This document shows positions 5,146 to 42,800 of a DNA stretch of 64,000 nt, in pieces; position 1 is the stretch's first letter, and each line of letters opens with the position of its first letter. The stretch covers positions 39,248,001 through 39,312,000 of the forward strand of contig NW_024704742.1 of NCBI RefSeq assembly GCF_018977255.1, read 5' to 3'. Origin of the DNA: Callorhinchus milii (lineage: Eukaryota). Both the position numbers and the translations under genes were made by a program. The notes under the pieces are model-generated. The model worked only from the letters and a program-made list of their open reading frames with translations, had not been told where the DNA came from and did not search any database.

Positions 5146-5470
5146 GTTGAGGAGCCTCTTGTCCCTGTGTAAGCTGCTCTCGAATGGTACTTGTTTCCAA
5201 GGAATACATGCAGTTTTAATTTAGAGAGGAAATCCTTTTTTTCTATTCCTGCTTTTTGAGGAAGTGCACAACAGTAACTGGAAGTGATGAAAATCTGCTT
5301 TTAATCTGCTTTCACTTATTGATTACTTGAGAATTGCAGAACTAGATTTCTATATCGAAATTGATATTGATATTGGGAAAGGGTTTCGTTGATGTATAAG
5401 AAGAAGAAATACATCTCCAGAAATCAAATTGCTTGAAGAGTATTGAAATTGCGAAGCATTTTTAAACAAA
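5146..5470 (+). other. ZNF518B: 5' UTR part of the ZNF518B coding exon; splice acceptor at 5144-5145
   Basis: Polypyrimidine tract tctttctcattatag|gttg upstream of the long ORF. Confidence 0.6.
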
Positions 5471-8400
5471 ATGCAGCTGAAATGGTTACGAGTGCTGTTG
5501 CCTAAAATGGAAGATATTGCAGGGAAAGAGAGTTTTGCCAATGCTGCGTCAAACGTCTCTATGAAATCTGGTACTGGAAGAAGGCAGACTGCAAGGAAGA
5601 CTGCAGGATTGAAGAAGTCTACTTTGGATCATTCTAGCGCAAAGAGACAACATTTTGCCTCAAACCAGCATTTGGGTAAAAATAAAGAGCCAACAGAGAT
5701 ATGTGGTGATTTTGAAGGATACAGAAAGGACATAAATGAAATGTTAATGTTTTGTGTTAAATGTAAAGATATCCAGCAATTTAGTTTTACAGAATTACAA
5801 CAGCACTGCCGACAAAACCATCCTGAAGATAAGCCTTTATTTGTTTGTAGCCAATGTGGGTTTACTATTGATGATGCAGAACAAATGAATGCACATGCAA
5901 TTTCGCATGAAATGGATAACGTATTGAATACAATGCAGAGTGAAAATAAGGAAGATCAATCCTCAATTGTAGAGGGAAAGCTACCAAAAAGGAGACATTT
6001 GAAGCCCAATACAATGTATTGTAATAAATGTAGATTTTCAACAAAAGATCCATTACAGTTTCAAAAACATATTCTGAGACATGAAGAAATTCAGTACAAG
6101 TGTGGACGATGTGAACGGGTCTGCTATACGAGGGGAGAATTTCAGCGCCACTCCGTGCAACATACAGGAACATTTCCCTTCAAATGTAGGTATTGTGATT
6201 ATGGTGCAGTCCGAAAGGATTATGTTGTAAAACACACTAAGGGTGTACATCGTGACATCATAAAAANCGGTGGGTCTGTACTTGTACTACCAATGAGAAA
6301 AGGCAGCAAGAAGAAAGCTGTCTCCAAAATGAAGAATGTATTGAAAGTTAAACGAACAGCAATGGAACAAAGTGAGAATTCGGCTAATGTTGGTTTTCAG
6401 AATCTGGAGGGATTTTCATTGCCTTTAGGACTGAAATCTATTAATGGATCTTCTGAAATGAAGGATTTGGATAATGCTGCTTCTCTGGAAGCTTGTGTGA
6501 ACACCTGTGATATTGTAAGTTTGGAAAACTCTATGGTAGAAAATACTAATATTTTGAATTGCTCTTCTATGGAGGCCAGCAAAGTCCAGCTGAAGCTGCA
6601 GACATCTTCCAACCACACAGTCCAACCTGGTGCTCCATTAACTCTGGTTGCTCCAGCACAGATGGTTATTCCTTCCAACTGCTTGGCTCAGCTCATAGAA
6701 ATAAAAACAGTTAATGAGAAACAACAATTGGTATTCAAAATAATACCATCGACTGCTGTCCCTATGTTAGAAGCTAATGCATCTGGAGTGATTGCAAAGC
6801 CATCACAAGAACTGAATAATGCCCACATTGTACAACCGCAGAATCGCAGAGTCTTAAATCAATCATGTACACTGCTGACAAACCATGTGGATCCCACAAA
6901 TGAACTGCTCCAGTTAGATCCTATAAATAAAATTGCAGATACTAAACAGAATAGAATGGGCCTAAATGCTAACTTTATCATTTCAAGGCCACTCTCTACG
7001 ATTGATGCAGAATCGGTATCAAACAAAAAGGGTGTATTAGAGTGTAGAAGTGAAGACAGTTCAAAAACAAATGGAAGAGAAGAAAATCTAACTTCAATAA
7101 GAGAGTCTAGTGAAAATCAGCTAAAAGATGAAGGTCTTGCTTATGAACAACTGGAAAAAGTTACAGAACACAGCAATTATGGAAAAATGACCTCTGGCAA
7201 AGGTTCATTTACAAAACCATTTGCTGAAAGTGTATATGTGACAAATAAAACTAAAATGATTTTTTGTAATGCTCAAATAGCAAAAGACGACAGTTGTAAA
7301 AGTTTTAGCAAAGCAGTTGTATCATTCCCCTCGTATAGGACTCAGCAAAATATGCAACTTAGCATCACATCTCCTCGTACTTTACTCACTGTTGACAAAG
7401 ATTCAGAATTACAGACTAAGTCATCCACCAACTGCACAACTCGGGCTGCTAAAAATAGTGATAAGCAAATTACCCCTAATTTATGTATAGAACAGACTGG
7501 ATTTATATCTAACAAGATGTTTCACACAGATTATTCAAAAAAGCAAAGACTTACTGAGCAATCTATTGGTATGGAAACTTGCAATAGTTCTAAAATTCAC
7601 AGTAAGTGTTCTGTTGCTTTAAAGGAATGTAGTAACATAACTCAATTCAATTCTGAGGATTGTAGTGTGAAGTGTGTTAACAATCCGTATCCTGCATTGG
7701 AGCTAGGGGTCAACAGCAGGAATAAGCTATATTTGTCCGTTCAGGACTCTGATGCATCTAAGCACAAACAAATTAATGACAGTACAGATAAAACTAAATC
7801 AAGCTGCAATCATATTTTGATTACACAGGCACAAAGTCAGAGTCCAAAAAGTACAGCAGATGTTTATGCAAATGGGTCATCTATATCTACATTCTTGAAT
7901 GAATTATTAGTGCCTGTGGGTGACAAAACTGAAAACAAACACTCATTGTCTCTTTCCAGTATGCAGCCTGCACAGGACTCCAAAGTATCTCGATCACAAG
8001 ATGCAGCAATAAATGCAGAGGTGGTTCCTGATTTTAGAAACCAGTGTGACTTAATTAGAGCTGAGACTATTGATGATCCTTCTGTCAGTATACAATGGCC
8101 TATCATTTCTTCTGTATTTTCTCTTAGCTGTGGTTCTAACGATGTGCCAGAAGCTATTCGATGGGATAATGAGCACGAGAATACTTGCTCTCCATCCAAT
8201 TCTGCACAAGAAACATCAATAGGTAGTAATTTGCAAACTAAATCAGATTCCCAGTTTGTAAAAAATGGAGATGGAAAGGAATATCAAAGAAACTGCTTAT
8301 TTGCATCATCTGAGCATACTGTAAAACCAGTTGATCACTTTTACGCTATTCAGACAAAGGCTGAGAATGTCATAACTAATTCTGGGCAAAAGGAGCTGAA

Positions 8401-10873
8401 CAAAAACTACCATTTTGGAGAGCCAAGTCAAAAAAATCCACCATGTGTGTCAACATGTGGAAATATAGACCTCAATACAACGTCGGTTCAATTAGTAACA
8501 ATGCTAAATGGAAACCCATTTCACCTGCACAATGGCAGTAACATCTTAGCTGAACATTCTTCACTACAACCATCTCTCCCGTCTCCAATATCACCTGTGG
8601 AAATTGATGATCATTCTTCTCCATGTCATTCCCAACAGTTACCTGATAATGTCAGTGTGTACAGGGATGTATCCCATATATCAAGTGGATATTCTAAAAA
8701 ATCAAGCAGTTCTAATGTCTCCTTGGGATCTTCTGTCACAAGCAGTACAGAAGGGAAGTGTGCTACAAAAATGGATAGCATTGTACAGAGAATAGAAACC
8801 AGTGATATGTCTGATACCAATGTGATTCCATTAAGCACTGTCACCCGAAACGATGAAACTAATTGCCCCTCAGTCTTGGGTCTTAAAACATTTCCACTTC
8901 TGTCCTCAGAACCTGGAACTTTTCAAAACAAAGTAATGCCGAGGACTCTATCTTCAACTGTAAGTGAACTCGGGATAGCTTCAGTTTCACCTAATTATAG
9001 CGACACCACTTTAGTTGCATCAATGCCTTGTGGAATTTCGCCATGTGGTTTGAAACCACACAAGTTATCTTCAGTAAATCCACATTTTACAATTGAAAAT
9101 CAATTGGTAATGCCACTTTCAAACAATTCTGAATCAACAACAATTCCAAATTCAAGAGGAAATTATTTTTTCCGGAATGTTTGCTCTTCTCCAGAGGAAG
9201 TACAAGAAGGCAAAACTGGGGTAGCATCCTCATCCGTCCATGGGCTTAGCTTGCAAGGTAATATTTCATCATTTGTTTCAAATTATATTCCAAGTGCAGG
9301 TTCCACAAGTGCCAATTCTGCTTCTAATCATACTGTTCAAGAACTTGGTGAAGAGTCTTACAGTTTTGATGAAACCATGCAGCTCATAGAAAAGATCACC
9401 GTTTCAACCAGAGCAAAACAACAAAGTTCTATATTGTCAAGCGCATCTGCTGTATGTAACCAAAGTAACCATAACAAAAGTCAATTGAGCATAAACAAAA
9501 CTACGTCTATCATACCTCTTGACATTGAACAAAGTAAACTTAAATCTGAAGTATCAGAGAACGTCTCTGAACAACCTGAACACGCCACAAAGATTCTAGT
9601 ATCACAGAGCACAGTTGAAAATGGATCTGTAAATTATGTTCAGGGACAGAAGGTATCAAATCCACATCAGCAGTCCAGCTCTGGAAACTCATGTGTTTCA
9701 CGACTGTTGAGTTCTACAAAATGCTGTATTGATTTTGACAATGCATCTTCACATTTCCTAGTAAAGCGTATTTTAGGCCCTGGGAATTCTAAACAAGGAA
9801 CTACCTACAGAGTTGTTCCCAGTGGTATTGTACTTAAAGTGTTGAATCCTGTTGATGACTCCAAGCAGGAGAAAATAACTGCTGCAACTGTACATTGCCA
9901 ATCCCTCCCTCAGTTAAAAAACCTTCACAGAGTATTGTGTCCCACACCAGTGACATTTAGCATGGCAGCAAAATCAGTGTTGAAAACACCATCTATGACA
10001 AAGAAGCAAAAAGCTTCTGCCAAAACTCAATCACAAAACAATCGCTCAGCTGAAGCAAAAGCCCAAGAAACCAACCTCTGTGATCAATCTTTTGTTTCCA
10101 CAGTGGGTCCAAATTCAACTGTATGTGGCACTGCTTCAGTTAAGACAGTTGCTCATCATAAATCTCAACTGTTAAAATCTGGGAGGAAAATGCCCCTGAA
10201 TCGCAGGAATATGAGAAAAAGAAAATTTGATCAGGTGCAGGATAATGTCACATTAAAAAAGACCCAAAAAAGGGATATTTGTCCTGTTTTTGCTGGTAGC
10301 CATGAGTTATTGAAAACAGCCCGCAGACTGAGGCTCAGACCCTTTAATGAAGATCAGTTGGTCAAATGTCCTCGTCGCAATCAGCCCGTAGTTGTGTTAA
10401 ACCATCCAGATGTGGATGCATCAGAGGTAATTAATGTAATGCAAACTATAGGCAAGTATAAAGGACATGTTCTCAAGGTGGTTTTATCTCAAAGAACTGT
10501 TATTTCTCTTAGGCTAAAAGAGAAACACCAAAGACGGGAGCTAAGAAACCGAAGCAAATCCATTGACAAAAGGAAGAACTGTAGGGTAGTCAGTCCGGTA
10601 AAAGAAAGACACATGTTGAAGATGAAATTAAAAAAGATCCATAAAAATAATTATCAAATAGTGAAAAATGTTCAAAATGAATTTCTGCAGATCAAATTCC
10701 ACTGTTGGTTTTGTGGACGAATGTTTTGCAATCAGGAAGAATGGATTGCTCATGGACAACGTCACTTAATGGAAGCCACCAGGGACTGGAATGATGTTAC
10801 CACCATTCAGGAAAGTGTAGTAGGTGAAAGCAAAGACTTGAACATGAAAAAAGGAGAAAGAAATCCTATATAG
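5471..10873 (+). CDS. ZNF518B: Zinc finger protein 518B (single coding exon, 1800 aa; alternative start M13 at 5507, aaaATGG)
   Basis: Finger cluster YCNKCRFSTKDPLQFQKH..YTRGEFQRH..HTGTFPFKCRYCDYGAVRKDYVVKHTKGVH matches human ZNF518B as recalled; C-terminal ZNF518 signatures QLVKCPRRNQPVVVLNHPD and HCWFCGRMFCNQEEWIAHGQRH; adjacent to CLNK. One N at 6267 (codon ANC, cannot be a stop). Confidence 0.92.
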   Translation: MQLKWLRVLLPKMEDIAGKESFANAASNVSMKSGTGRRQTARKTAGLKKSTLDHSSAKRQHFASNQHLGKNKEPTEICGDFEGYRKDINEMLMFCVKCKDIQQFSFTELQQHCRQNHPEDKPLFVCSQCGFTIDDAEQMNAHAISHEMDNVLNTMQSENKEDQSSIVEGKLPKRRHLKPNTMYCNKCRFSTKDPLQFQKHILRHEEIQYKCGRCERVCYTRGEFQRHSVQHTGTFPFKCRYCDYGAVRKDYVVKHTKGVHRDIIKXGGSVLVLPMRKGSKKKAVSKMKNVLKVKRTAMEQSENSANVGFQNLEGFSLPLGLKSINGSSEMKDLDNAASLEACVNTCDIVSLENSMVENTNILNCSSMEASKVQLKLQTSSNHTVQPGAPLTLVAPAQMVIPSNCLAQLIEIKTVNEKQQLVFKIIPSTAVPMLEANASGVIAKPSQELNNAHIVQPQNRRVLNQSCTLLTNHVDPTNELLQLDPINKIADTKQNRMGLNANFIISRPLSTIDAESVSNKKGVLECRSEDSSKTNGREENLTSIRESSENQLKDEGLAYEQLEKVTEHSNYGKMTSGKGSFTKPFAESVYVTNKTKMIFCNAQIAKDDSCKSFSKAVVSFPSYRTQQNMQLSITSPRTLLTVDKDSELQTKSSTNCTTRAAKNSDKQITPNLCIEQTGFISNKMFHTDYSKKQRLTEQSIGMETCNSSKIHSKCSVALKECSNITQFNSEDCSVKCVNNPYPALELGVNSRNKLYLSVQDSDASKHKQINDSTDKTKSSCNHILITQAQSQSPKSTADVYANGSSISTFLNELLVPVGDKTENKHSLSLSSMQPAQDSKVSRSQDAAINAEVVPDFRNQCDLIRAETIDDPSVSIQWPIISSVFSLSCGSNDVPEAIRWDNEHENTCSPSNSAQETSIGSNLQTKSDSQFVKNGDGKEYQRNCLFASSEHTVKPVDHFYAIQTKAENVITNSGQKELNKNYHFGEPSQKNPPCVSTCGNIDLNTTSVQLVTMLNGNPFHLHNGSNILAEHSSLQPSLPSPISPVEIDDHSSPCHSQQLPDNVSVYRDVSHISSGYSKKSSSSNVSLGSSVTSSTEGKCATKMDSIVQRIETSDMSDTNVIPLSTVTRNDETNCPSVLGLKTFPLLSSEPGTFQNKVMPRTLSSTVSELGIASVSPNYSDTTLVASMPCGISPCGLKPHKLSSVNPHFTIENQLVMPLSNNSESTTIPNSRGNYFFRNVCSSPEEVQEGKTGVASSSVHGLSLQGNISSFVSNYIPSAGSTSANSASNHTVQELGEESYSFDETMQLIEKITVSTRAKQQSSILSSASAVCNQSNHNKSQLSINKTTSIIPLDIEQSKLKSEVSENVSEQPEHATKILVSQSTVENGSVNYVQGQKVSNPHQQSSSGNSCVSRLLSSTKCCIDFDNASSHFLVKRILGPGNSKQGTTYRVVPSGIVLKVLNPVDDSKQEKITAATVHCQSLPQLKNLHRVLCPTPVTFSMAAKSVLKTPSMTKKQKASAKTQSQNNRSAEAKAQETNLCDQSFVSTVGPNSTVCGTASVKTVAHHKSQLLKSGRKMPLNRRNMRKRKFDQVQDNVTLKKTQKRDICPVFAGSHELLKTARRLRLRPFNEDQLVKCPRRNQPVVVLNHPDVDASEVINVMQTIGKYKGHVLKVVLSQRTVISLRLKEKHQRRELRNRSKSIDKRKNCRVVSPVKERHMLKMKLKKIHKNNYQIVKNVQNEFLQIKFHCWFCGRMFCNQEEWIAHGQRHLMEATRDWNDVTTIQESVVGESKDLNMKKGERNPI

Positions 10874-24740: not shown

Positions 24741-24869
24741 TCAATATGGTCCCACTGGAGAAGTCAAGATGCAATGCTCCATTTGGATTCCAGTTTGATC
24801 TCTTCGATCGATCAATCGCAAGGGAATATTTCTATGGAATTGTATCATTTCAGACACTGAATCAAATAT
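24741..24869 (-). CDS. CLNK: CLNK last coding exon (SH2 C-terminus)
   Basis: tttctctacag|[42 protein letters not shown]. Confidence 0.9.
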   Translation of the reverse strand: MFDSVSEMIQFHRNIPLRLIDRRDQTGIQMEHCILTSPVGPY

Positions 24870-27800: not shown

Positions 27801-30800
27801 TGAGGAAACTTACGTCATGTCCTCTGAGTCCAGTTCCCAAAGCATACTGTTTACTGTCCCCAAAGTATCGAATTTGAATGTTGTAAACTTTACTTCCATA
27901 ATATACAACCAATACGTATGGCTGATCTGGGGATTTTTTGGAACTGTCTCTGACCAAGAATGAACCATCCTAATTCAAGGAAAAGTGAGCGAATTCAACA
28001 GTTAATAATAGATTACATACAGAACTCTGCAACCCGTGTCTTCTCCCACACCAGGCTTTGTGACGCTATCACCCCCATCCTGACCCAACTCCACTGGCTT
28101 CCCATCACACAGATGATACAGTTCAAGATCCTGGTCCTCACCTTCAAAGCCCTCCATGGCCTTGCTCCCCACTACCTCCTAACCCCCTACTAACCTGCCC
28201 ACTTCCTCCGCTCAGCGGGCTCCGGCCTGCTTCACAACCTGATATAATAATAATAATAATAATTATTATAATCCTTGCATTTGATATAGCGCTTTACACG
28301 TCTTCTGGACGTCTCAAAGCGCTTTACAGAATATACTGTAAAGTGAATTGACCGTATATTTGTGGGCGAAACACAGCAGTCAATTGCGCACAGCAGTGTC
28401 CCACAAACAGTCGTGGATTGAGAATGATCAAGTTATTATTGTTTTGTTTTAGAGGTATCAGATATCTGACACAATTAAGATCACTGGCCTTTGAGATTTA
28501 CCCATAAATACAATTGCATGCCAAGGTAGCAGAACAGGTGGACACAGGTTCAGGGCTACAAAGTGCAATTTCAGGGAAGGCTTGATTCTGGTGGGGGTGG
28601 GTGTTGGTATTCTGGAAGGTTAAGACCAAATAGGCTTTTGAGTCTTTTTTATCCTAACCTGTAAGGTACTAGAGGGAAACCAATGCCTGTAGAACTGTAC
28701 CTTATCATACATCAGGACTTTGAGGAAGGGAGACAACTTTTAGGCAAAAAAATTACAACGTGGTGTAACTTGAAATTATTTTTACTGAAACATACCAGTT
28801 AGTACTACTGTAGAATGAATAAAGTAACATGATTGCAAAACAACATGTGCAATAAGCATAAAAACTTTATAAGCCTTTTAAAAATGTCTTGAGATTTCAT
28901 AGATTTTATTCATAAGCAGATACTTTATGTAAAATTATTTATTATGCATATTTGAATATTCAAGGTTTGGAGCATAACTGGTTACCTTATTGGTTTCTGT
29001 TAAAGCTCTTTCTGCTTCATAACGGTCATAGGAGCTAACATACCAATCGTTTCCTTCTAAATCCTGAAATATATTCATAATGGAAATGAATTTCTATTCA
29101 CATGCAAAATGAGAAATACTTTGAATAATCAGGCAATACAATTCAACATTTTGCTCTGTCCTCCCACTCACCAGAGACATGCATTGTGTGGACTAGGAAA
29201 GTATCTACTTACTTTTATCATCTCACCATCTTGCCTACAAAGCCTCCCAGTGGAAAGAAACATTTCTAACACCCCATTAAAACTCATAAATTGAGGTTGG
29301 ATTCATCCCAACTTTGATCTCAAATTTGCCACTACACATCAACTAAATTAAATGCTTGAAATTGACAGAGCCACTTCAGGTGTTAATTTCTATCAGTGCC
29401 AATTTGGAGATTCATGAATAAACTAATGGTGGACTTTGGACTCCGTTTCATTTTAATGATCAGTCTGTTCCTCAAATCATTCCTCTAAATTATCCTGCAA
29501 AACTGGCAATCTCCACTGTATGACACTAACCATCATTTTTTGTCATTGTCAAAGTAAAATACCTGTACATTTGTGGATACACAATTACAGCAATAAACTA
29601 TTACCATGCTTAAGAGTATCCAAACCATACTAAGAGTTCTACATACTGATGCCACTTACTCATGCAAATTTTGGTGAAACTGTAGTTAATGTGAATGCTG
29701 AACTTTCAACCCCAAGTCTTAGGTTTGGATCTCATTTCAAGAAATGGAGTTAATCATTTACCTTTGCAGAAAGTTTGGAAAAATGTTCAGCATTCTGTAC
29801 ACGAGGACTGGACTGCATTTCTGGTCTCCTGGGCATGTCTTGTGATGGCTTCACTGGAGATCATGAAAAATCCAAGGTACGTTAGTGATGTAAAACAAAC
29901 AGAATTAATATAACCCAAAGTAACTATGATGATTTTTAGTAGTAAGTTTATTTATAATTATAATTTGATAATGAAAAGATTCTGCAAAAACACTTTTATA
30001 ATTGTTTACGTTTAGGTAACGGAAATGGAACACAAACATTGATCTAGTAGATTTTAATATGTTAATATATTACATTAGATTATTAGAAGATGTTAATATA
30101 TTACAATATTTATTGCAAATATAAGTTAGACTATATATAGGTAAAAAATATGTTATACCTGGTATCTGTGATATTCTGTTAGAAGTGCTAGCATAAAAAC
30201 AAACATTGTTACAATCAGAAAAACATAAAGGAAACTTACAGCAGTATCATTTTAATGATTCGCATTTGTGTCCATTTTGAATTCTATTACTGCATGAAAA
30301 TTGTACAGCCTATTGTAATTCCTGCTCTGTGTCAATCTGAGGAATTCCCCATCTTAAAGATTTAGCAAAAAATATTTATTTTTAGGAGCTGAGTGGAAAG
30401 AATCTCTTCCCTCAGTAACTGCTTACCCAAGTCCAACAGATGTGTCAGACTGGTAGGTCCATCTTCATCAGTGCCCTGCAGTAGTGCAGACTCGCCTGGC
30501 ACACACATCAGACTACAAGACTGCCACAGAAGATTAACTCAGTTCTGATATTCCATATCAAGCATGTCACCTGGGACCCAGTTCAGCTCCAATGAGACCC
30601 CACTTATCTCTCCCAATGAGGATAATGCTTCTATTTTAAGTCTGAGGCCTTGGAAGTCTATTTTAAGATCATCCACCTGCCCCTCAGATACAATTGATGT
30701 GTGGCCCTGTGATACCAAGACAAGCTGGAAGAATCTTGTCTAATAAAACATACAGCCTCTATTTTTGGTATGGTGCATCACTGAGTTGAATGAATTTGTA

Positions 30801-33800
30801 CTAAATTCAATTTCCAGACAACTTTAAACATAAGTGTGTGCACATACACACACACACACACACACACATTTGTGATGTTTTTGTTGCAAAATGGCCAACA
30901 GCATTTGAGATGAAACGCTAGCTGTCTCCAACACTTTTAAAATGAACTTTCAGCTATTTATTTTAAGAAAGTTAACACCTTGTAGAATCTTACTTTCCAA
31001 AGTCTGTAATATCTTTTCTAAATAATCTTTTACACCACAAACAACTTGCATTTATATAGCTCACATTTGGGTAGGGTCTTGAGAGTGCTTTTAGCTTAAA
31101 TAACTAACACAGTGTTTATATGCACTTGGGATGTGCTCCCGACACGAAAGGCGCTATACAAATATAATCTTGTTGTTGTTGTTGAAGATGGCTTGAGAAG
31201 CATGGATCTTGATGGAAAATGACTGACTAAAGATTTTATTCTTTATTTTTAGTTGTACCTTGCTGACTGAGGGATCGGAGGTTTAGGTCGAAATGACAGT
31301 GGAAGCTGATCTCTGCTTGGTGAGTGCAAGTCTCTGCTCAGGAGGGGCGGGTCTCTGCTCAGGAGGGGCAGGTCTCTGCTCAGGATGGGTGGGCCTCTGC
31401 TTGGTATGGGTTGGCCTCTGCTTGGTATTGGCGGGTCTCTGTTCATGGGGGACAGGTCTCTGCTTGATGTGAGCTGGCCTTTACTTGGTGTGAGCTGGGC
31501 TCTGCTTGGTGTGGGCAGGTCTCTGCTTGGTGTGGGCGGGTCTCTTTTCGACAGGGGCGGGTCTCTGTTCAGTAGGGGCAGGTCTCTGTTCAGTAGGGGC
31601 GGGTCTCTGATCAGTAGGGGCGGGTCTCTGATCAGTAGGGGCGGGTCTCTTTTCAGTAGGGGCGGGTCTCTGTTCAGTAGGGGCGGGTCCCTGTTCAATA
31701 GGGGCGGGTCTCTGTTCAATAGGGGCGGGTCTCTGTTTATAAGGGGCGGGTCTCTGTTTAGTAGGGGCGGGTCTCTGTTCAGTAGGGGCGGGTTTCTGTT
31801 CAGTAGGGGCGGGTCTCTGTTCAGTAGGGGCGGGTCTCTGTTCAATAGGGGCGGGTCTCTGTTCAATAGGGGCGGGTCTCTGTTCAATAGGGGCGGGTCT
31901 CTGTTTATAAGGGGCGGGTCTCTGTTCAGTAGGGGCGGGTCTCTGTTCAGTAGGGGCGGGTCTCTGTTCAGTAGGGGCGGGTCTCTGTTCAGTAGGGGCG
32001 GGTCTCTGTTCAGTAGGGGCGGGTCTCTGTTCAGTAGGGGCGGGTCTCTGTTCAGTAGGGGCGGGTCTCTGTTCAGTAGGGGCGGGTCTCTGTTCAGTAG
32101 GGGCGGGTCTCTGTTCAGTAGGGGCGGGTTTCTGTTCAGTAGGGGCGGGTCTCTGTTCAGTAGGGGCGGGTCTCTGTTCAGTAGGGGCGGGTCTCTCTTC
32201 AGTAGGGGCGGGTCTCTGTTCGGTAGGGGCGGGTCTCTGTTCGGTAGCGGCGGGTCTCTGTTCGGTAGCGGCGGGTCTCTGTTCGGTAGGGGCGGGTCTC
32301 TGTTCGGTAGCGGCGGGTCTCTGCTCGGTAGCGGCGGGTCTCTGTATGGTGGGGGCGGATTCCTGGTTGGTGGATGAAGGTCTTTGGTTGGTGAAGGAAT
32401 GTCAGGCTGACATCTAAAATGAATGCCTAAATGAAAAAATCAAAATGAATACTTTTATGAATATAATATTTACAATGCTGTATAGCCATTTCTATTTAGT
32501 GTTCAATAATTTTCAGTAAATATGGACCGTGAAGTAAAGCATAAATACATTCATCTATTATTGTTTGCTTAATTTAAAAAAAAATCTGCTCTGAAGCTCC
32601 CCAATCCTGGTTGGCAATCTCCGGCTGAGACGATGGACAATGTACTGCTCCCAGTCCTCTGTCGCCTTTCACATTAGGAGGTGGTTATCTTTCCCCTCCC
32701 CACATTCCTCAAGTCCCACCCCTCAGCTTGGGTACCCAGCCAGTGCTTTGGGAGGTCCTCCCAATGTGAGAGGGCAATATTAATAATATAATATTCCTTG
32801 CATTTGATATAGCACTTTTCACGTCTTCTGGACATCTCAAAGCCCTTCACAGAATATACTGTAAAGTGAATTGACCGTATATTTGTGGACAAAACGCGGC
32901 AGCCAATTGCGCACAGCAGTGTCCCACAAACAGTCGTAGATTGAAAGTGACCAATTTATTACTGTTTTGATTTGGAGGGATTATTATTAGGCATGTGGAG
33001 TAAGGAAACTTGCCCAAGGTTTCACCCTGCCTGGAATTGAATCCAGGTGTCTCGTTTGCAAAGCGAATGCTCTAACCACTGAGATACAGGACGCCAATTA
33101 AATAATAATACAAAACACAAATTTGTCATATGTGGAATCACAGCAGTAACTTTATCCTAGCACCCATGCCATTAACATATTGCACCACCAGAACACATCT
33201 GCATTTACTCTTGCTCCCTCCCATTCACTAACATCAATTTTGGTCTCTTTTGGTGAATTCTCTTGGAATCCACCAGGTGGAGTAATTTACAACAGTTTCT
33301 CTGTGTCGGATAGAATTCATTAAAACAAAGAATATTTTTTGCCATTTATATTAAATATGGTGAACAAAGGAATATTTTTAATCCCTCTGTGTTCTACGGA
33401 CGGCATGGAAGTTCAGCTTCCTTTCCGAACATTTCAAAAATACTTGGTAATTTATTCTCAGCTGTCACAGCGCAATACATCTTGTATGTCTGAGGATTAA
33501 CTCTGTATATCTTGGCTATAAAATGGTTTAAATATTATCCCCGTTGTAACAGAGGAAACGACAAGGGAGTAAGGAAAGCTGTAATGGTTATGGAGGAGTA
33601 GGTATGTATTTGTCTGACAGATCAGGTAAGTACAGCATACATGTAAGAAAAAATATTTCCAGACACAAATGTTGAGGGTGTTGTAAGGGCACAGAGGTCC
33701 TGTATCATATACTCACCAGAGTCAGCTATCAACATCATGAATAGTATTTCAACATCACTAATGCCATATTGTACACTGGCTTTATTTGCTGACCAAAATG

Positions 33801-36800
33801 CCCCCCAAATCCAACAATTTATGGATTTTATAAATACATAAACTGCACTTTGCAGTAAATCATGTATAGTGCTTTAAAATGCCCTCCTGACATCGAAATG
33901 TCTGCATCAAGTGAAAGGATTATAATAAAAACTAATACAAAAAAACTTATTCGCAGGCAGAGGACAGGTATTCAGTATCCTCTAGCAACTGAGGCAAATA
34001 AAATCCCATTTTGCAGACCTTCATGTCGCACATTTGGAGCGTCAAAGTTGTATTTCTTTTTATCACATATCAAGGGTAATTAACAACTGGAACTGATTGT
34101 CAGGATGGGTAGTTTAGGCCAAGATCACAAAATTGGTTGGATGAAGAAGGCTCTTCAGCCCACCTAATCTCATTCTTCGAATAGAAAATATAGAGTCAAT
34201 TTATTCTGTGAAATGCTTTGAGACATCTCAACGATGTGATAATGTGCTAAATCAAATGGAAGTATTATTATTATTATTAATACTCAAGTTACCGTTCTCC
34301 CATCACAGTGCTGAGCTACCTTTCAAAATAGTCCTTTTAGAAACTCACTTGAAAGACAGCTTGAGTTTGGTGCTGTAATAGAAATGGTAGGGTGAGTATT
34401 CTGGAAAGATGAGATCAGATGGGCTGAACGTCCAAACCAATCTTGTGATCATGTGAAGTTACAATATATAATTAAATGTTATGAGAGTTACACCCACATA
34501 ATAATGTATATATACAATTTTTTTTAGAAAACAAGCTACAAAATGTAGAAATTTTCCAAATATCAAAGTATTAATCGAGTGTTAAGTGTCCTCTGCAATG
34601 TGCTAGATATGGAGGTATCAGTGTGGCTTAGCTTGCAGTACTCTCATATCTGGGTCAGAAGGCTGTGGGTTCAAGAACCATGTTGGGATTCTGAGCTCAC
34701 AGACTAAACCTACCCTGGGTGCAATGCTGGAGGAGTGCTGCATTGTTAGCAGTGCTGTCCAATCTACAGTCAAACTTTACAATTAACCCTATTCAAAAAG
34801 AAGCGAGTTTCTCCTGTTGTCCTGGCCAAAAATACTCAAAATAAATTGATCTTTCCCTTTCGTGTTTGTGGAACTTCGCCGATCACCAGTTGGCTGCCTT
34901 GTCCACCTACTTATACACTACACTTGATAGCCATTACCTGTGAAGTGTTTTGAAATTATAAACAGTACAAATGCAAAGATTATTATTACTCACCCTTTCT
35001 TGGTATTATCTGTTGAGGAAAAAGAAGCAGTAATAAGGATTGCAAGCATGTTATATACTCTCAAATACCTAAACTAAGTTTCCCCCATAGGATTATTATC
35101 AATTTCATTTTACAGCTGAGGAGGAGGCAGTTAGGCCATTGAACATAGGATGGTGATAGCTTCTTTACCCAAGCTAACTCCTCTCATTCCAATTCTATAC
35201 TCTCTCTTTGTATCATTTTATATTCTTCCTCTTGAAATGTTTATTCAAATTCTTTTAAAATGTTTTCATGGTCACAACTTCAAAGGCACGTGAAGGTAAG
35301 TATTCAGCCTGATTTTATATTTTGTTTAACCAATTTACTAAGCAGCAGGAATAATCTTTCATTATCTATCCTCTCAAGATTTTTTTTCTCTATTAGATCC
35401 TCTCTTAACTTCTCTGTTTCAAGGAACCATCCCAAAATTTGTATCCACATAACTCTAACCTTGGTACGATAGAGGGTATCCAAAACTAGACACAATGCTG
35501 TAACCGGTACAACCAATGTCTTGTGCAAACACTCAAGTGCTTTCATTTAATTTTACTGTGAAGTTGATTAAAACAAAGGTTGAATGTTCCTCGCAAAGTT
35601 CTTTGATTATTTCACAGAAAAAATGTTAGAAAATGAAAGGGTTTAAAAACATTAGATACCTCGTCATTTGTATTCTTCCAAGGAGATCTGAAAGAGAACA
35701 AGAAGGTGAACGATAGCAGTTGTGTGTGGTAAATGTTCATACAGATAGATGATTTATCAAACTATAAGAAAACGTTCTGAATATAGTATCCAATTCAACT
35801 TACACTGTGCCATTGCCACTCTGAGTTGTCACTGGACTTTTTCTAGAGTTCAACAATTTGTTGGGTTCTGAGGGACTTTGGCTACGACTTGGTTCGGGAG
35901 GAAGTGGCTTGAAATCCTTGGGTAAATGCTTAGGAGGCCTAGATATACATATACATAAAAAATCATTAAATTCAGCTTTCATAACAGGTTTCTTAACCAG
36001 AACCTGGTTTGGTGGATACCTTTCTCAGGCGTAATAATTCCATCAAAAATAATAAATTGGTCCCTCAAGAAAAAAAAACAATAATAAAATTGGTCACTTC
36101 AATCCACGACTGTTTGTGGGACACTGCTTTGTGCAATTGGCTGCCGGGTTTCGCCCACAAAATATACAGTCAATTCACTTTACAGTATATTCTGTGAAGT
36201 ATTTTGAGATGTCTCGAAGATGTGATAAGGCGCTATATCAAATGCAAAGCTTATTATATTATTATGAATATATCAGAGTGGGTGGGGAATTTTAAAAATG
36301 GACAAGCAAAAGCAGAGGAAATTTATTAGAAGATACAAGGAAAGAACAGGGAATTAAGAGTATGATGGACTGCTTGTATGAGAGCCAAACACTGACAGAA
36401 AATATTGGGCTGAATGGCCTCCTATTGGCATTCATTTCTATGGTTTTATATGATGTTTCATAACAGATTCAGTAATTCTTGAAATTGTTTTTTTCCCACA
36501 CAAAGGGCTGTGGAAACATGGAAGTTACTACTTCAAAACATTGTAGATGTTGGTTCAATTAAAGTATTTAAGAGGGAGGGAGATGGATATCTGGTGGGTG
36601 AAGGGATCAATGAATATAGTGAAAGGCTAGGGAAATTATATTAAGTTTCAGATCAGTCACGACCCAATAAAATGTGAAACAAGTTCGCCGGGCTGAATAG
36701 TCTACTGTTTTCTAATGTTATTTTTAGCAGCCAATTTGCACCCAGCAATATTCCACAAACAGTCATGAAGCAATTTTATCTGGGGGATTGTTGGATACCA

Positions 36801-39800
36801 GGAGAAACTCTCTTCTCTTTTCGAATAGTGCCATGGGATCTTTAACATCTACCTGAAAAGCAGACAGAATCTCAGTTTAACATCTCATTCGAAGGATGGC
36901 ACCTCTGACAATGCAACACATCCTCAACTGCATTGGAGTGTCAGCCCGCACTTGTCAATTCAAAGTCTTTATGTGGGACTTGAATTTACAATCTTTCTCA
37001 GAGCTGAGAGTCCCAGCTGAACAGAATGACACGCAAGATTCAAGTAGTGTGGTTATAACTACAACCCTATATGCCATAGTCCATAGGGCAAGATTAACAT
37101 AGTCAGATAAGTACATTAAACCCCCATCTTACCAGACTCCGGGTATCCGGAATTTGGAACGAGTCAGACAGGACCCGAAAGCGAAAAATTGATAAAAGTT
37201 CCGTGGACTGAGTGCAGACTCATGCCGGCCACTCTCCTAGAGCGCTCCCCTACATCACCATGATTGTTGGTCTTCAGTGGCCAGGGATATTGACTTTGAT
37301 TCAGTTTGAATCCCTCAAGCAGAAGACAGCTTATTCGCTATTCAACAATTACAGTGACAGTACTGGCATTTACCAGTATTTTGAGGCGTTTTGCAGAAAA
37401 AAATCCAACGCTAAGAAAAGCTGGTAAATGCTGGCATTGTAATTACATTTAACTGGAAATTCTGACTTGATGACCATTGGTCTACTGTACTATAAAAGTA
37501 GCCAGTGTTTCATGCAGTCATACCTTTACCAAGTGTATTTGATTTCATATTACCTGGGTGGTGGTGCTGGTTGCTGTGGGGAAAAAAACAGTTCAGCTGT
37601 TGATGATCCAAATACAACATTAATTATACATTGTTATGCCACGTAATAGACTAGTTAGCAAAATTGAACTCCATGGGATAAAAGGGTTAAAAGGCAGTGT
37701 GGATATGAAATTGTCTAGGAGATAGAAAGTCGTGAATGGTTGTTTTTCAGTCTGGAGGGAAGTATACAGTGGTGTCCCCAGGGGTCACTGTCAGGTCCAC
37801 TGCTCTTTTTGATATATGTGAGTGATTTGGACTTGGGTATAGAAAGCAAACTTTTAAAGCTTGCAGATGGCACAAAACTTGGGAATGTAGTAAACAGTGA
37901 GGAGTATGGTAGCAGACTGCAGGAGATAGACAGACTGATAAAATGGACAGACGCGTGGCAGATGAAGTTTAATGCAGAGAAGTGTGAGGTGCTACATTTT
38001 AGGAAGAATGAGAAGAGGTAATATACACTAAATGGTCCAATTTTAAAGGGGGTTCAAGAGCAGAGTGACCTGGGGGTTCACATACACAAGTCTTAGAAGA
38101 TGGCAGGACAGGTTGATAGAGCTGTTAAGAAAGCATATGGGATCCTTGATTTTATAAATAAAGGCATAGAGTACAAAAGCAAGAAAGTTTTGCTACACAA
38201 TAACAATGTAAACAAAATTAAATTTCTATAGCACCTTTCACGTCCGGAGGACATCACAACCTTTATAAGTCACTGGTTAGGTCTCAGCTGGAGTATTGTG
38301 TCCAATTCTATGCATGATAATCTAGGAATGATATCAAAACCTTGTGCAGAAGAGATTTACCAGAATGGTATCAGCGATGAAGGACTTTAGTTATGTGGAG
38401 AGACTAGAGAAGCTGTGATTGTTCTCCTTAGAGCAGAGAAGGTTAAGGGGTGATTTAATAGAGGTGTTCAAAATTATGAAGGGTTTTGATAGAGTAGATA
38501 GGAAGAAACTGTTTCCTCTGGCAGGTGGGTCAGTAACCATGGCACATAGATTCAAGATAATTGGCAATAAAACCAGAGGGGAGATGAGGCAAAATTGTTT
38601 TACACAGAGAGTTGTTATGGACTGGAATTCATTGCTTGAAATGGTTGTGAAAACAGATTCAGAACAACTTTCAAAAGGGAATCGGATAGGTACTTGAAAA
38701 GGAAAGATTTGCAAGGATTTAGGGAAAGAGTGGGGGAGTGGGACTGATTGGAATATTACAGCACTCTATGCTATAATATTCTATGATTCTATGATTAAAT
38801 CGTGTGAAGCAGAGAGCTCTTGTGTTTTACTTGTGTTTGTAGCTTTACTCCAATTACTCTCAAAACAAAAAGAACCTTCTGTAACAAAACAAGAAAATAG
38901 AAGTGACCACGCCTTCTCCAGACCATGGGAAAGTTTGTCTGAGGCTTGTTCATTGAACCTGTCTCCTCAAGTTCTGTCCTTGGTCCAATTTAATATCACA
39001 AACATGATCCAAGCTTTGAAAACACTGAGAAGCCTAAATGAAACAGATGTCTATGATTCTCAAGCGTTTTCAAGGCTGGGATCATGTTCCTGATCATACT
39101 GAAGAACTAGATAAATAGAATAAAGTTTGCGGGCTTTTAAGTCTACAGCTGCTAAAATTATTTCAGCGAAAAATGATTCTTGTGAAAGGTGATAGATTCC
39201 TTCAAGGTAATAACAAAAAATGGCAATCGAGAACTAAAGGAAGATTCTACTTCCCGAGAGGAATGAACTGCCATCTAGCGACTGCTGGTGTTTTTTACAC
39301 AGTGACAGGCTTAAACATTGTAATCTCCACTTCCAATTTTTAACTAAACATTTTTAGCAACAAACTGAGTGACAGACTGATTATTAAAATCTGCTTGTGA
39401 GAAAATGAAATGATGAGAACAAAGATGTGATATAATTCAACAAAAGCATCCTTTTCATGGATTGCCAAACATAATGAACAATTTGAGATATCCTTACCCT
39501 GATTTCAAGGATCGAACTTTTCTCTGACAAACAAAAAGAAAAGTAGTATTGTTATAGCTTTTTCACAAACATGAAGTCAAGCTTAACCTACTCACAGCAC
39601 TACTAAATTTATTGCTAATTTGTTATGTTAAAATAGTACAGAAGTTGCAGTATAAATATTTTTCACATCTGGAACAGTTTCAGCAACATTGAGATTGATG
39701 AATTGCTGGGTCAAGGCCGTATAGTAACTGTTAAGAAATAAATATGCATATAAATGAAACCTAAACAAAACATCAGAAGATTGTGAGTTCAACGACATCA

Positions 39801-42800
39801 GTACTTTGAATTCATATAGTCCAGCCCAGTTCATTGCAAAGTGTTGCATTGTTTGAGTTACCATCCTTTGGATGAGATGTTAAACCAAGGTTAGTTTATC
39901 TGTCCAGGTGGCCATAAAAGATCCCATGGCACTATTTGAAAAGAGAAGGGAGTTTCTTCTGTGTCCTGACCAACAAACTCCCAAATAAAATTGGTCACTT
40001 ACTCCATGATTGTTTGTGGGATATTGCTTTGGGTAAATGGGTTGCTGCATTTGCCTCCAAAACACACAGTCACTACACTTTACAGTATATCATATGAAGT
40101 GCTTTGATATGTCTTTCGAACATGAAAGGCACTATATCAAATGCGATGATTATTATTGAAGATCATAGAAATCCCTTTTCAAGAGTAATGCTCATTGCCA
40201 AGAATAACTCTACTTCATTATTTTAATACTGGGAGTAATTTCCAGGTTCGCTTAGGCTATCCATAGAATTTGCCTTTGTGCCAACATGTGTACAGCAGTA
40301 ATGAAGGTGTCTATTTAGATAATTAAGAACTGATGGAAACGATTCATGAGTTTCTATAAATCTTTTCAACGGTTGTTAATTACACATGGTTAACTCAACT
40401 TCACAATTGTGCACGAGGTGTTAACCAAACCAATAAATTATACTCTACTGTAACTGAAACCAGCTATTTTTAATTCATTTGACATATAGGAAAATTATAT
40501 AGTTGGTCATGATACATATGCACCAGCACAGGCGACGGATAATATTGCAGTTACACTGTTGGGAAGGAATCAGCTTCACTCTTATGTGACTTGCACTTCC
40601 CCCTCCACATCACTTACAATAATGTCAGGAAAAAAAAGGGGTTGAGATTTTAAGTTTATTAACATGCTATTTGCTCATCAATAACACTAAAAGTACTCTG
40701 TTAAAGAACCAATAGCTTTGAATTGAGGATCAAGCCCAGGATAATATGTATTTACCATGTGTACACTGTGCAGTTACAAATTGTAGCCTAGAACTTATCT
40801 TAACCTCACAATAAACCAACAGTTGTATTATACTTTGGTTTTCTGAGACCTGCAATTATTACACTAACTAACCATGGCATCTTATTCTTAGATATGGTAC
40901 AGAAAAGATAGTTATCTCTTTGGATCTCTTTGAGACAAAAGCATAGTTCAATTTTTTTAAATTGGACATTAGGTGATTATACAGATGATTAGAGAAGAGT
41001 AAGATTCGTTTAAATCTAAGGTCTGTTTAATATAACTTGACGTGTTGTTTATTCCAAAACTTTCTCTTCAGCGAAAAGATTAATATGATGCAAAGTTGCA
41101 AATAATCAATCTTAAAATAAATATTTGCAAAGTAAAAGAAAAATCTCTCATCCAAATCATCAAATAAATCATAGCAGATTCATAATCCAGCCAAAAGTTT
41201 AACTGTCAAAATGAATCATGCCTAGAGATTACAGTAGGGCAGGTTGGAACTATCCATCCAGGCTTCTGAAGCATTAAACAAAACAGCAGACTAGGTACAC
41301 TGTAACTATCTGCCATTTAACTGTTAACCATAACTCTGTTCGTAACTCTGTCTGTTCAGCACCTTAGGAAGTCCTCCCGATGTGAAAGACGCTTTACAAA
41401 TGTAATTTTGTTGTTGTTGTTGTAACCAATAGTCCTTTTAGGCCTCAAGCAGGGAATCACCTTCAAGTTACATGGTCTCACGTTCTCCAGTCATTCTGAA
41501 GCCTTTGATTTTTCTTCGGTCCAAGTATTGACAGAAGGGCAAAGCCATTCAAGCCAGCAAATGTTTCTTGCCAGTCCCCAGGTAGGTTGTGACCTACCTG
41601 GGGACTGGCATACTACTGGTCATTTTTCCCCTTCCCACCCCATTCTGCTCCCACTCCCAGGTTGGATACCCAGCCAGCAGTGCCAAATGTTTTGTGATGT
41701 TCTCCCATGCAAAAGCTGCTATATAAATATAAATTGTATTGTATTTCTTCAGCCTTTTTTTGTAATCCTTCCATAATATTGCAAAGTTTTTTTTTTCAAT
41801 ATACAATCTTTCAAAATACAAAATCTTCTGAGCTCAATGGAGACTGAAAACTGCAAATTAATTACATGCTTATTGATAGAAGTGAACCAAACTTTCACTG
41901 TTTTTTTAAAAAAATATAACACATTAAGAGCCTACCTGGGGACTGGTGAGAAACATTTGCTGGCTTGAATGGCTTTGCCCTTCTGTCAACACTTGGACCT
42001 AAGAAAAATCAAAGGCTTCAGAATGACTGGAGTGTAATCCTCTATTATCACACATGGAATAGTTATAATAGTCTTCTTTATTTACTTTGAGTAAACATTG
42101 TAACTCGAAGATCATAATCGCACAAGAGGCTTGGTTGAAGATGGCTCTTGGACTATACAATCTCATTGTTCTGGAATCTCAACCTGATTGTCTTCCAATT
42201 ATAACATCAAGCTATTTATAAAACAAGTACAGTGTCTTGTCATTGGAATTGGACCAAGCTCAACCATAATTTGCATAAATTTGTCTCTCTTCCGCTCCTC
42301 CATTCCAGAAATAATTTCAAATCCTCTTTCTCCCACTGGAGTATGGTTCTATGATTGCTGTACACCAATAAAGAGGAAACGGAATTGAAATCATCAGTGT
42401 TCCTCATCTAAGTGGCCATTACTCATGTGTGAATGTTAACAGTGAGCACTGACAGGCTATCAAATGGCTGGAGCAGCAAAGCGGAGTCCGATCCAGTACT
42501 TTCACTCCACAAAATGCAAATCCCAGCAGACATATCTGGATAAGGATTGGGAACCCTGGCTGATTCTCCCCTCCCTTAAACCAAGGAGCACTGAAGTAAA
42601 TTGTAGTATCCAGACTGCTGTCAGGCTGAGATTAGCAAACTCAATACAATTATATTGTATTTAACTCAGCGCAGATCTGGATTCAAACCCAGACGTTCTG
42701 TTTTTTTAATAGTTAGATTCTCTTCTGATATTGTGTGTTATTCACAGATCTTTTATGAGTAGAAAAATATCATCTCGATAAAAATGCACTGGGTATATAG

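Follow-up and report, generated by a model that had tools for sequence, protein, structure and literature searches.

A lineage-specific, in-frame array of 52 heptads in CLNK of the elephant shark, hidden by a split gene annotation

CLNK/MIST is an adaptor of the SLP-76 family, characterised by cytokine-dependent expression in haematopoietic cells. In mouse Clnk the front half and the SH2 domain are laid out within 435 aa, as given in the accessible part of PMC2195705, and shark CLNK proteins have 431-489 aa. The elephant shark (Callorhinchus milii) protein analysed here has the same order of a basic front, a tyrosine- and proline-rich region, an SH2 domain and a short tail, but it carries 51 extra heptads before the SH2 region, with no comparable periodicity in the non-Callorhinchus proteins among 144 screened. 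In the paralogous adaptor SLP65/BLNK, too, a disordered region that precedes the SH2 domain carries several proline-rich motifs. According to the part of PMC10923291 available to us, six PxxxPR-type motifs drive SLP65 condensates with CIN85, whereas the C. milii array exon contains none and the core of its array lacks PxxP.

Disordered regions built of coding tandem repeats are already known as a class, and no new kind of mechanism is shown here. Human protein-coding VNTRs include the 19-aa repeat of ACAN, present in 13-44 copies, as well as repeats in MUC1, TENT5A and TCHH (bioRxiv 10.1101/2021.01.19.427332, accessible portion). Like these, the C. milii array consists of tens of in-frame tandem units in a coding exon; it differs in lying in a cytosolic immune adaptor and in having a single ancestral heptad that can be traced. 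A literature search found no paper on a CLNK array in the elephant shark or in Callorhinchus; subscription journals fell mostly outside the coverage of the search, and an earlier mention is possible.

On sequence evidence, the 64,000-nt stretch of C. milii DNA that was analysed (the window) is the CLNK locus. The middle exon of the SH2 region (27969-27814, minus strand) matched Pfam SH2 at 25.2 bits against a cut-off of 21, and the closest solved structure was the SH2 domain of BLNK (PDB 2eo6). Its translation was 100% identical to C. milii CLNK XP_007887175.1 and 72-77% identical to shark proteins, and the best database matches were named CLNK (best 120 of 320 hits). The gene thus has a C-terminal SH2 domain of the SLP-76/BLNK/CLNK type, and N-terminal acidic tyrosine motifs and a proline-rich region share its reading frame. 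Mapping of shark and C. milii proteins onto the window gave a minus-strand chain of 17 coding exons, all with GT-AG introns, running from 62122 to a stop at 24741 with no internal stop codon (Table 1). The chain corresponds to RefSeq 5' model P0142 up to the first array units and contains the RefSeq 3' model entire. It encodes 807 aa read from the window, or approximately 837 aa when 30 N-terminal residues are borrowed from P0142, the first coding exon or exons being taken from that model.

A sequence-only reading of the window had assigned the gene to CLNK, and the Pfam match, the identity to XP_007887175.1 and the exon-by-exon correspondence with sharks bear this out. Two of its statements on layout needed adjustment. 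The array does lie upstream of the SH2 domain, but not just before it, as two exons (41 codons) separate the array exon from the exon that opens the SH2 region. The growth of the protein is large, but at ~837 aa against 431-489 aa for full-length shark proteins it amounts to 1.7-1.9-fold, somewhat less than the rough doubling proposed.

Table 1 Features of the CLNK locus in the window
Feature	Position	Strand	Evidence
Eight upstream CLNK coding exons	62122-62079, 53115-53072, 46468-46294, 44064-43925, 43592-43511, 41998-41936, 39523-39498, 37573-37554	minus	GT-AG chain matching RefSeq P0142
135-nt CLNK exon with conserved proline-rich RPPK..LPP motif	35804..35938	minus	Exon mapping; covered by X5 record 17
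28-nt CLNK micro-exon, phase 2->0	35660..35687	minus	Exon chain
16-nt CLNK micro-exon, phase 0->1, upstream neighbour of the array exon	34994..35009	minus	Exon chain; part of the 44 counted letters in X5 record 17
Internal CLNK coding exon with the array, 1168 nt, phase 1->2, 389 codons	31259..32426	minus	Splice sites, open frame, X5 record 17 at the acceptor, RefSeq at both ends
52 in-register 21-nt units (heptads, commonest DPPLLNR)	31312..32403	minus	Tandem Repeats Finder and codon-register parse
Seven consecutive heptads, each with a class II SH3-type motif PxxPx[RK] (PPPPYR, PPLPSR, five PPLPNR)	32215..32361	minus	Motif scan
Core of 31 young, homogeneous heptads (units differ by 1.2 nt on average), lacking PxxP and Tyr	31564..32214	minus	Unit comparison, motif scan
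12 degenerate older heptads, two class II motifs, in-frame ATG at 31446	31312..31563	minus	Unit comparison, motif scan
29-nt CLNK exon, phase 2->1, downstream neighbour of the array exon	30159..30187	minus	Exon chain
92-nt CLNK exon, phase 1->0	29762..29853	minus	Exon chain
Three exons of the SH2 region and tail	29063-28986, 27969-27814, 24869-24741 (with stop)	minus	Pfam SH2 on the middle exon; 100% identity to XP_007887175.1

The array exon has TAG at its acceptor and GTACAA at its donor, and it is open throughout in the frame set by its neighbours. Tandem Repeats Finder reported a period of 21 at 31330-32345, with 48.4 copies, 91% matches and 0% indels. Parsed in codon register, the exon consists of 8 residues, 52 heptads and 17 residues, all in the 21-nt register, and both flanks correspond to shark sequence. 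Units divisible by three, held in frame within one exon, are the anatomy of a protein-coding VNTR. The earlier claims of about 50 heptads, of units of exactly 21 nt, of non-repetitive ends and of exon phases that fit those of the adjoining exons all stood. Units of the core differ from one another by 1.2 of 21 nt on average and the end units by 6-8 nt, a pattern consistent with an early duplication, after which a derived unit expanded or was homogenised recently. The only tyrosine of the exon falls in the block of seven heptads with consecutive SH3-type motifs, within a PPxY.

An intron hidden within the array was considered and ruled out. The exon contains a GT dinucleotide at 32411 and then none until 31552 (that is, none from 32410 to 31553), with no match to a GC-type donor. 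The 12 best internal acceptors were all of phase 2 and out of frame with the upstream donor. By a rough scoring matrix the donor at 31258 was weak (1.0, compared with 3.9-6.2 for the upstream donors scored), and skipping of the array exon together with the next exon (1197 nt) would keep the frame. The array also contains two TATAAA and one AGTAAA hexamers and 36 GGGCGG boxes, against four in the rest of the window. Its GC content is 61% and its CpG observed/expected ratio 0.60, against 0.33 in the window at 11-64 kb; it may act as an intragenic CpG-island-like element.

One strand of the array is G-rich, with runs of four and three G in each unit (G4Hunter-style mean 0.95, maximum 1.68), a property shared with CEB1-type minisatellites; the human G-rich minisatellite CEB1 is said to be unstable through G-quadruplexes. 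The canonical short-loop quadruplex motif had no match in the array, and the resemblance is a lead only.

We examined how far the open frame reflects constraint. The earlier reading had stressed that the array has no stops, which is correct for its frame but is weak evidence, as two of the six frames are stop-free and a third has one stop. In the array's frame a stop would arise from approximately 2% of single changes, so that with ~65 changes an array would by our arithmetic stay stop-free anyway with a chance of 20-30%. Given the two open frames and the small share of changes that make stops, the stop-free frame means little alone. The absence of indels is more telling: at least 63-66 substitutions and no indel have accumulated among the units, compared with 2-15% indels in seven other Tandem Repeats Finder rows (at least five copies, period of at least 10; about four arrays near the window start), rates that sequencing error may have inflated. 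These control arrays form a GC-rich minisatellite cluster at 3-2025 (periods 37, 68, 25, 45 and 21), upstream of a zinc-finger reading frame.

The amino-acid sequence of the array gave no such signal. The synonymous share of unit substitutions was 17/54 (0.31), against 0.26-0.31 expected, so the substitutions look neutral at the amino-acid level, although in an array this young such a result carries little statistical power. Selection on array length may be compatible with this pattern. An arginine or lysine occupies one column in 52 of 52 heptads, and the deficit of changes there was not significant (p 0.10-0.14).

Comparison with other cartilaginous fishes pointed to the origin of the array. 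All 12 elasmobranch proteins compared (11 sharks and one ray) have a single heptad, of the type DIIPPVR, at the place of the array, and the sequences on either side of it correspond to the 8 and 17 residues that flank the array in the window. Ungapped alignment to the shark segment, scored against shuffles, gave a match for the 5' end of the exon in all 11 comparisons (p<=0.0015); the 3' end reached p<0.05 in seven of 11 and failed in four. The sequences compared are related, and the tests are thus not independent of one another. Counted from the micro-exon to DLEG, this part of the protein has 430 aa in C. milii, 73 aa in eight of 15 shark and ray rows and 58-68 aa in the other seven, and the excess over 73 aa is 357, exactly 51x7. 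Strong periodicity was confined to the five C. milii models among the 144 proteins screened, and the longest of 139 SH2-bearing proteins compared had 532 aa. Because elasmobranchs have one heptad and the periodicity is seen in C. milii only, the expansion is placed on the chimaera side. None of the shark, ray and bird orthologues compared has the array; the sequence-only reading had described it as missing from human CLNK. The RCQP motif that this reading had also placed in the human protein occurred only in the four C. milii 5' models among 168 proteins, a set without human CLNK. The first 13 residues of the segment are missing from one Heptranchias isoform, perhaps through an alternative acceptor or a separate exon; the window has no donor at that point.

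Wider searches returned little else of the kind. No other chimaera sequence was present among the SH2-exon matches (best 120 of 320) or in a search of P0142 against 50% representatives. The latter gave 12 hits, namely C. milii, two sharks, a skate, two birds and six look-alikes, which proved to be unrelated heptad repeats of similar composition only. The repeat exon compared with proteins of 680-2000 aa had 5856 candidates, none at E<=0.001, and the ESM Atlas gave a best score of 0.86 and no usable lead. The 52-unit CLNK array is real, in frame, lineage-specific and hidden by a split annotation.

RefSeq divides the locus into two genes at the array, whereas the window gives one open chain. The 5' gene (XP_007887171-4 and XP_042197350, extensin-like, LOC103175790) and the 3' gene (XP_007887175, CLNK, 223 aa) contain the first and the last units in the same frame as the window and omit the core. 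The older 5' models (P0140 and P0142-P0144, extensin-like) run into the first array units, slip frame and end; the newer P0141 ends in a different exon at 39033, and the locus is still two genes. The exon has a single in-frame ATG, at 31446 among its degenerate 3' units; the CLNK-named model starts there and is spliced from the donor at 31258. The 5' exon end is thus present in P0140 and P0142-44, and the 3' end with its donor in P0001, in one frame from both sides. After SRDPPLP the earlier 5' models carry two NRDPPLP units where the window has four, and they then enter another frame; the earlier sequence therefore differed from the window at this point, possibly as a different allele and possibly through misassembly. 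It is known that tandem repeats disrupt both assembly and annotation (PMC6868369, accessible part), and the array has probably led annotation to split CLNK in two.

Transcript evidence came from one contig. Of four runs examined over 32325-36040, a region that stops short of the array core, X5 gave spliced CLNK cover, and X8, X10 and X12 gave no cover of CLNK exons there. We took X5 to be RNA by guess; its contig is spliced, and most intron bins away from interspersed repeats had no cover. The contig (X5 record 17; 469 nt, depth 14.3) aligned without mismatches in pieces on 32325-32427 and 35804-35940. It connects 35804 with 32426 through 44 letters, the number predicted for the 28- and 16-nt micro-exons, and extends 49 letters beyond 32325, past the early GT at 32411, both stretches being known by letter count. 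The sole CLNK contig among the rows listed therefore includes the array exon and enters it in frame from the upstream exons. As it passes 32411, and as the next GT is at 31552 with no GC donor, a transcript that enters the exon should include the core unless it ends inside. The expectation that the array is transcribed without internal splicing was thus supported on the entry side, by one contig from one run, but no contig spans the array, and passage through the core is deduced from the missing donors. Short-read contigs are not expected to span it, since repeated 31-mers begin at 32323. Sampled words of the exon were present at 0.47-0.61 in four unlabelled runs, 0.34 and 0.24 in two runs guessed to be DNA and 0.14 in X8, shares that we do not take as evidence of polymorphism or expression. 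Among the runs listed as containing the exon, none was registered as RNA.

We next consider what the insert encodes. Its composition is 29% proline, 21% leucine, 13% arginine and 12% aspartate, with one tyrosine; Pfam had no match on the array exon. A single-sequence AlphaFold model had a pLDDT of 44, weak evidence as it used no alignment and too poor for a fold search, and the proposed disordered linker is probably disordered. SH3 ligands follow +xxPxxP or PxxPx+, and SH3 binding can occur without PxxP (PMC3379994, accessible part). The exon has three class I matches and nine class II matches to PxxPx[RK]; of the latter, seven follow one another close to the 5' end and two lie close to the 3' end, compared with one class II match each in the complete proteins of H. 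francisci and H. perlo. All matches in the exon lie outside the core, in which the 31 units have neither PxxP nor tyrosine, and canonical SH3 motifs repeated across the array, as in a scaffold of the SLP65-CIN85 type, were not found. The suggestion that the array is multivalent was consequently not supported: the core has no PxxP, PxxxPR or tyrosine, amino-acid changes are not depleted, and the motifs are confined to the older end units.

DxxLL is a sorting-type motif. It occurs 29 times in the exon.

We propose, with moderate confidence, that the array is a lineage-specific coding minisatellite whose frame has been kept and which is tolerated as a disordered spacer or tether. The ancestral exon would have been of the shark type, in which a single segment of 21 nt encoded a D-x-x-x-P-x-R heptad. 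Along the line leading to C. milii this segment would have been duplicated in tandem and the copies would have diverged, after which a derived unit would have expanded again to 52 copies by unequal exchange or slippage; the pattern of units is visible in the window and the process is our reading of it. Old divergent units would have been left at both ends with a young uniform core between them. The whole exon would be retained on splicing, and translation would yield ~357 extra residues, rich in proline and leucine, charge-neutral and presumably disordered, placed between the tyrosine/proline-rich front half of CLNK and its SH2 domain so as to lengthen the distance between them. Selection would keep the reading frame and not the amino-acid sequence, which is why the array could work as a tolerated long tether; the core without SH3 motifs, the neutral substitutions and the non-significant R/K column suggest this reading. 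The few SH3-type motifs of the end units may be a side effect and not the main content. Tolerance is plausible because mouse Clnk is reported to be dispensable for T cell function, according to the available part of a review (PMC6603179).

A different account would make the array adaptive, by multiplying SH3 sites, or a non-canonical motif of the core, and so easing the cross-linking of SH3 adaptors into condensates as for SLP65 with CIN85. The nine class II motifs, seven of them consecutive, where a whole shark protein has one, and the invariant R/K column speak for it; valency governs SLP65-CIN85 phase separation in the accessible part of PMC10923291, and the possibility of SH3 binding without PxxP would extend the idea to the core. 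Against these, the most-expanded part of the array (31 units) has lost its second proline and with it PxxP, the exon offers no PxxxPR and one tyrosine, synonymous change is not in excess, and the condensates in the part of that report available to us are described for SLP65 and not for CLNK. We find this account quite unlikely. It is similarly doubtful that seven back-to-back class II SH3 ligands with a ~220-residue tether of variable length after them set how readily CLNK clusters SH3 partners at immune receptors; were that true, repeat length in a valency-amplified CLNK would tune lymphocyte or mast-cell signalling thresholds between individuals. A condensate role may be possible for the end motifs, but the core does not bear it out.

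Full-length CLNK might instead be a minor product, if the exon pair is often skipped in frame, if transcripts are polyadenylated at weak signals within the array, or if an internal GC-box promoter makes a short SH2-only form from the ATG at 31446. The weak donor, the length of the internal exon (1168 nt), the frame-preserving double skip, the TATAAA and AGTAAA hexamers, and the GGGCGG boxes with their high GC and CpG content would all suit such an arrangement, as would the 223-aa RefSeq model from the internal ATG, the 227-aa 5' model and the Heptranchias isoform, which indicates that splicing here varies in a shark. Yet the sole CLNK contig among the rows listed includes the array exon, and none of the 12 best internal acceptors is in frame. 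The annotation split falls where short reads must break, in keeping with the known effect of repeats on assemblies and annotation (PMC6868369, accessible part). We regard a minor full-length product as unlikely. It is also conceivable that the unit number or the clean frame belongs to this assembly or allele, other alleles being much shorter or frameshifted and the gene decaying. The two NRDPPLP units and the frame slip of the earlier RefSeq models favour this, but the slip falls in a run of C where these models break off within the array, and reads more readily as a broken short-read contig. The 17-exon chain is canonical and free of internal stops, the SH2 exon retains 72-77% identity to shark CLNK (best 120 of 320 hits), and assembly errors would be likely to add indels, of which none was seen; we hold a decaying or assembly-specific gene to be very unlikely. 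This leaves the frame-kept, tolerated tether as the reading that we favour.

The gene model can be repaired accordingly: what is annotated as two elephant-shark genes is most likely a single CLNK of ~837 aa, which matters where the elephant shark serves as a reference for early vertebrate immunity. The array also records the birth of a coding minisatellite, with the ancestral heptad, the diverged ends and the young core all readable. It also allows one to ask, in a natural setting, how long a disordered insert an SLP-76-family adaptor can tolerate and whether clustering changes with motif number or with tether length.

Several other features of the locus were observed. Four micro-exons (16, 20, 26 and 28 nt) lie within 34994-39523 on the minus strand, upstream of the 1168-nt exon, with canonical splice sites and a RefSeq match. 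The stretch at 41931-42032, which contains CLNK exon 41998-41936, has a 102-nt inverted copy at 41485-41586 (98/102 identical), ~350 nt from the exon in the next intron, and the copy may pair with the exon in pre-mRNA. This exon is skipped in RefSeq isoform P0144, and also in a Heptranchias isoform with no known inverted copy. An alternative last exon with a stop at 39033-38953 (minus strand), used by the newer RefSeq 5' model XP_042197350, would yield an N-terminal-only CLNK of 227 aa. Convergent with CLNK, a single open frame of 1808 codons at 5447-10873 on the plus strand encodes C2H2 zinc fingers at both ends and contains the only N of the window, at 6267; we take it to be ZNF518B-like, ZNF518B being the neighbour of CLNK in human.
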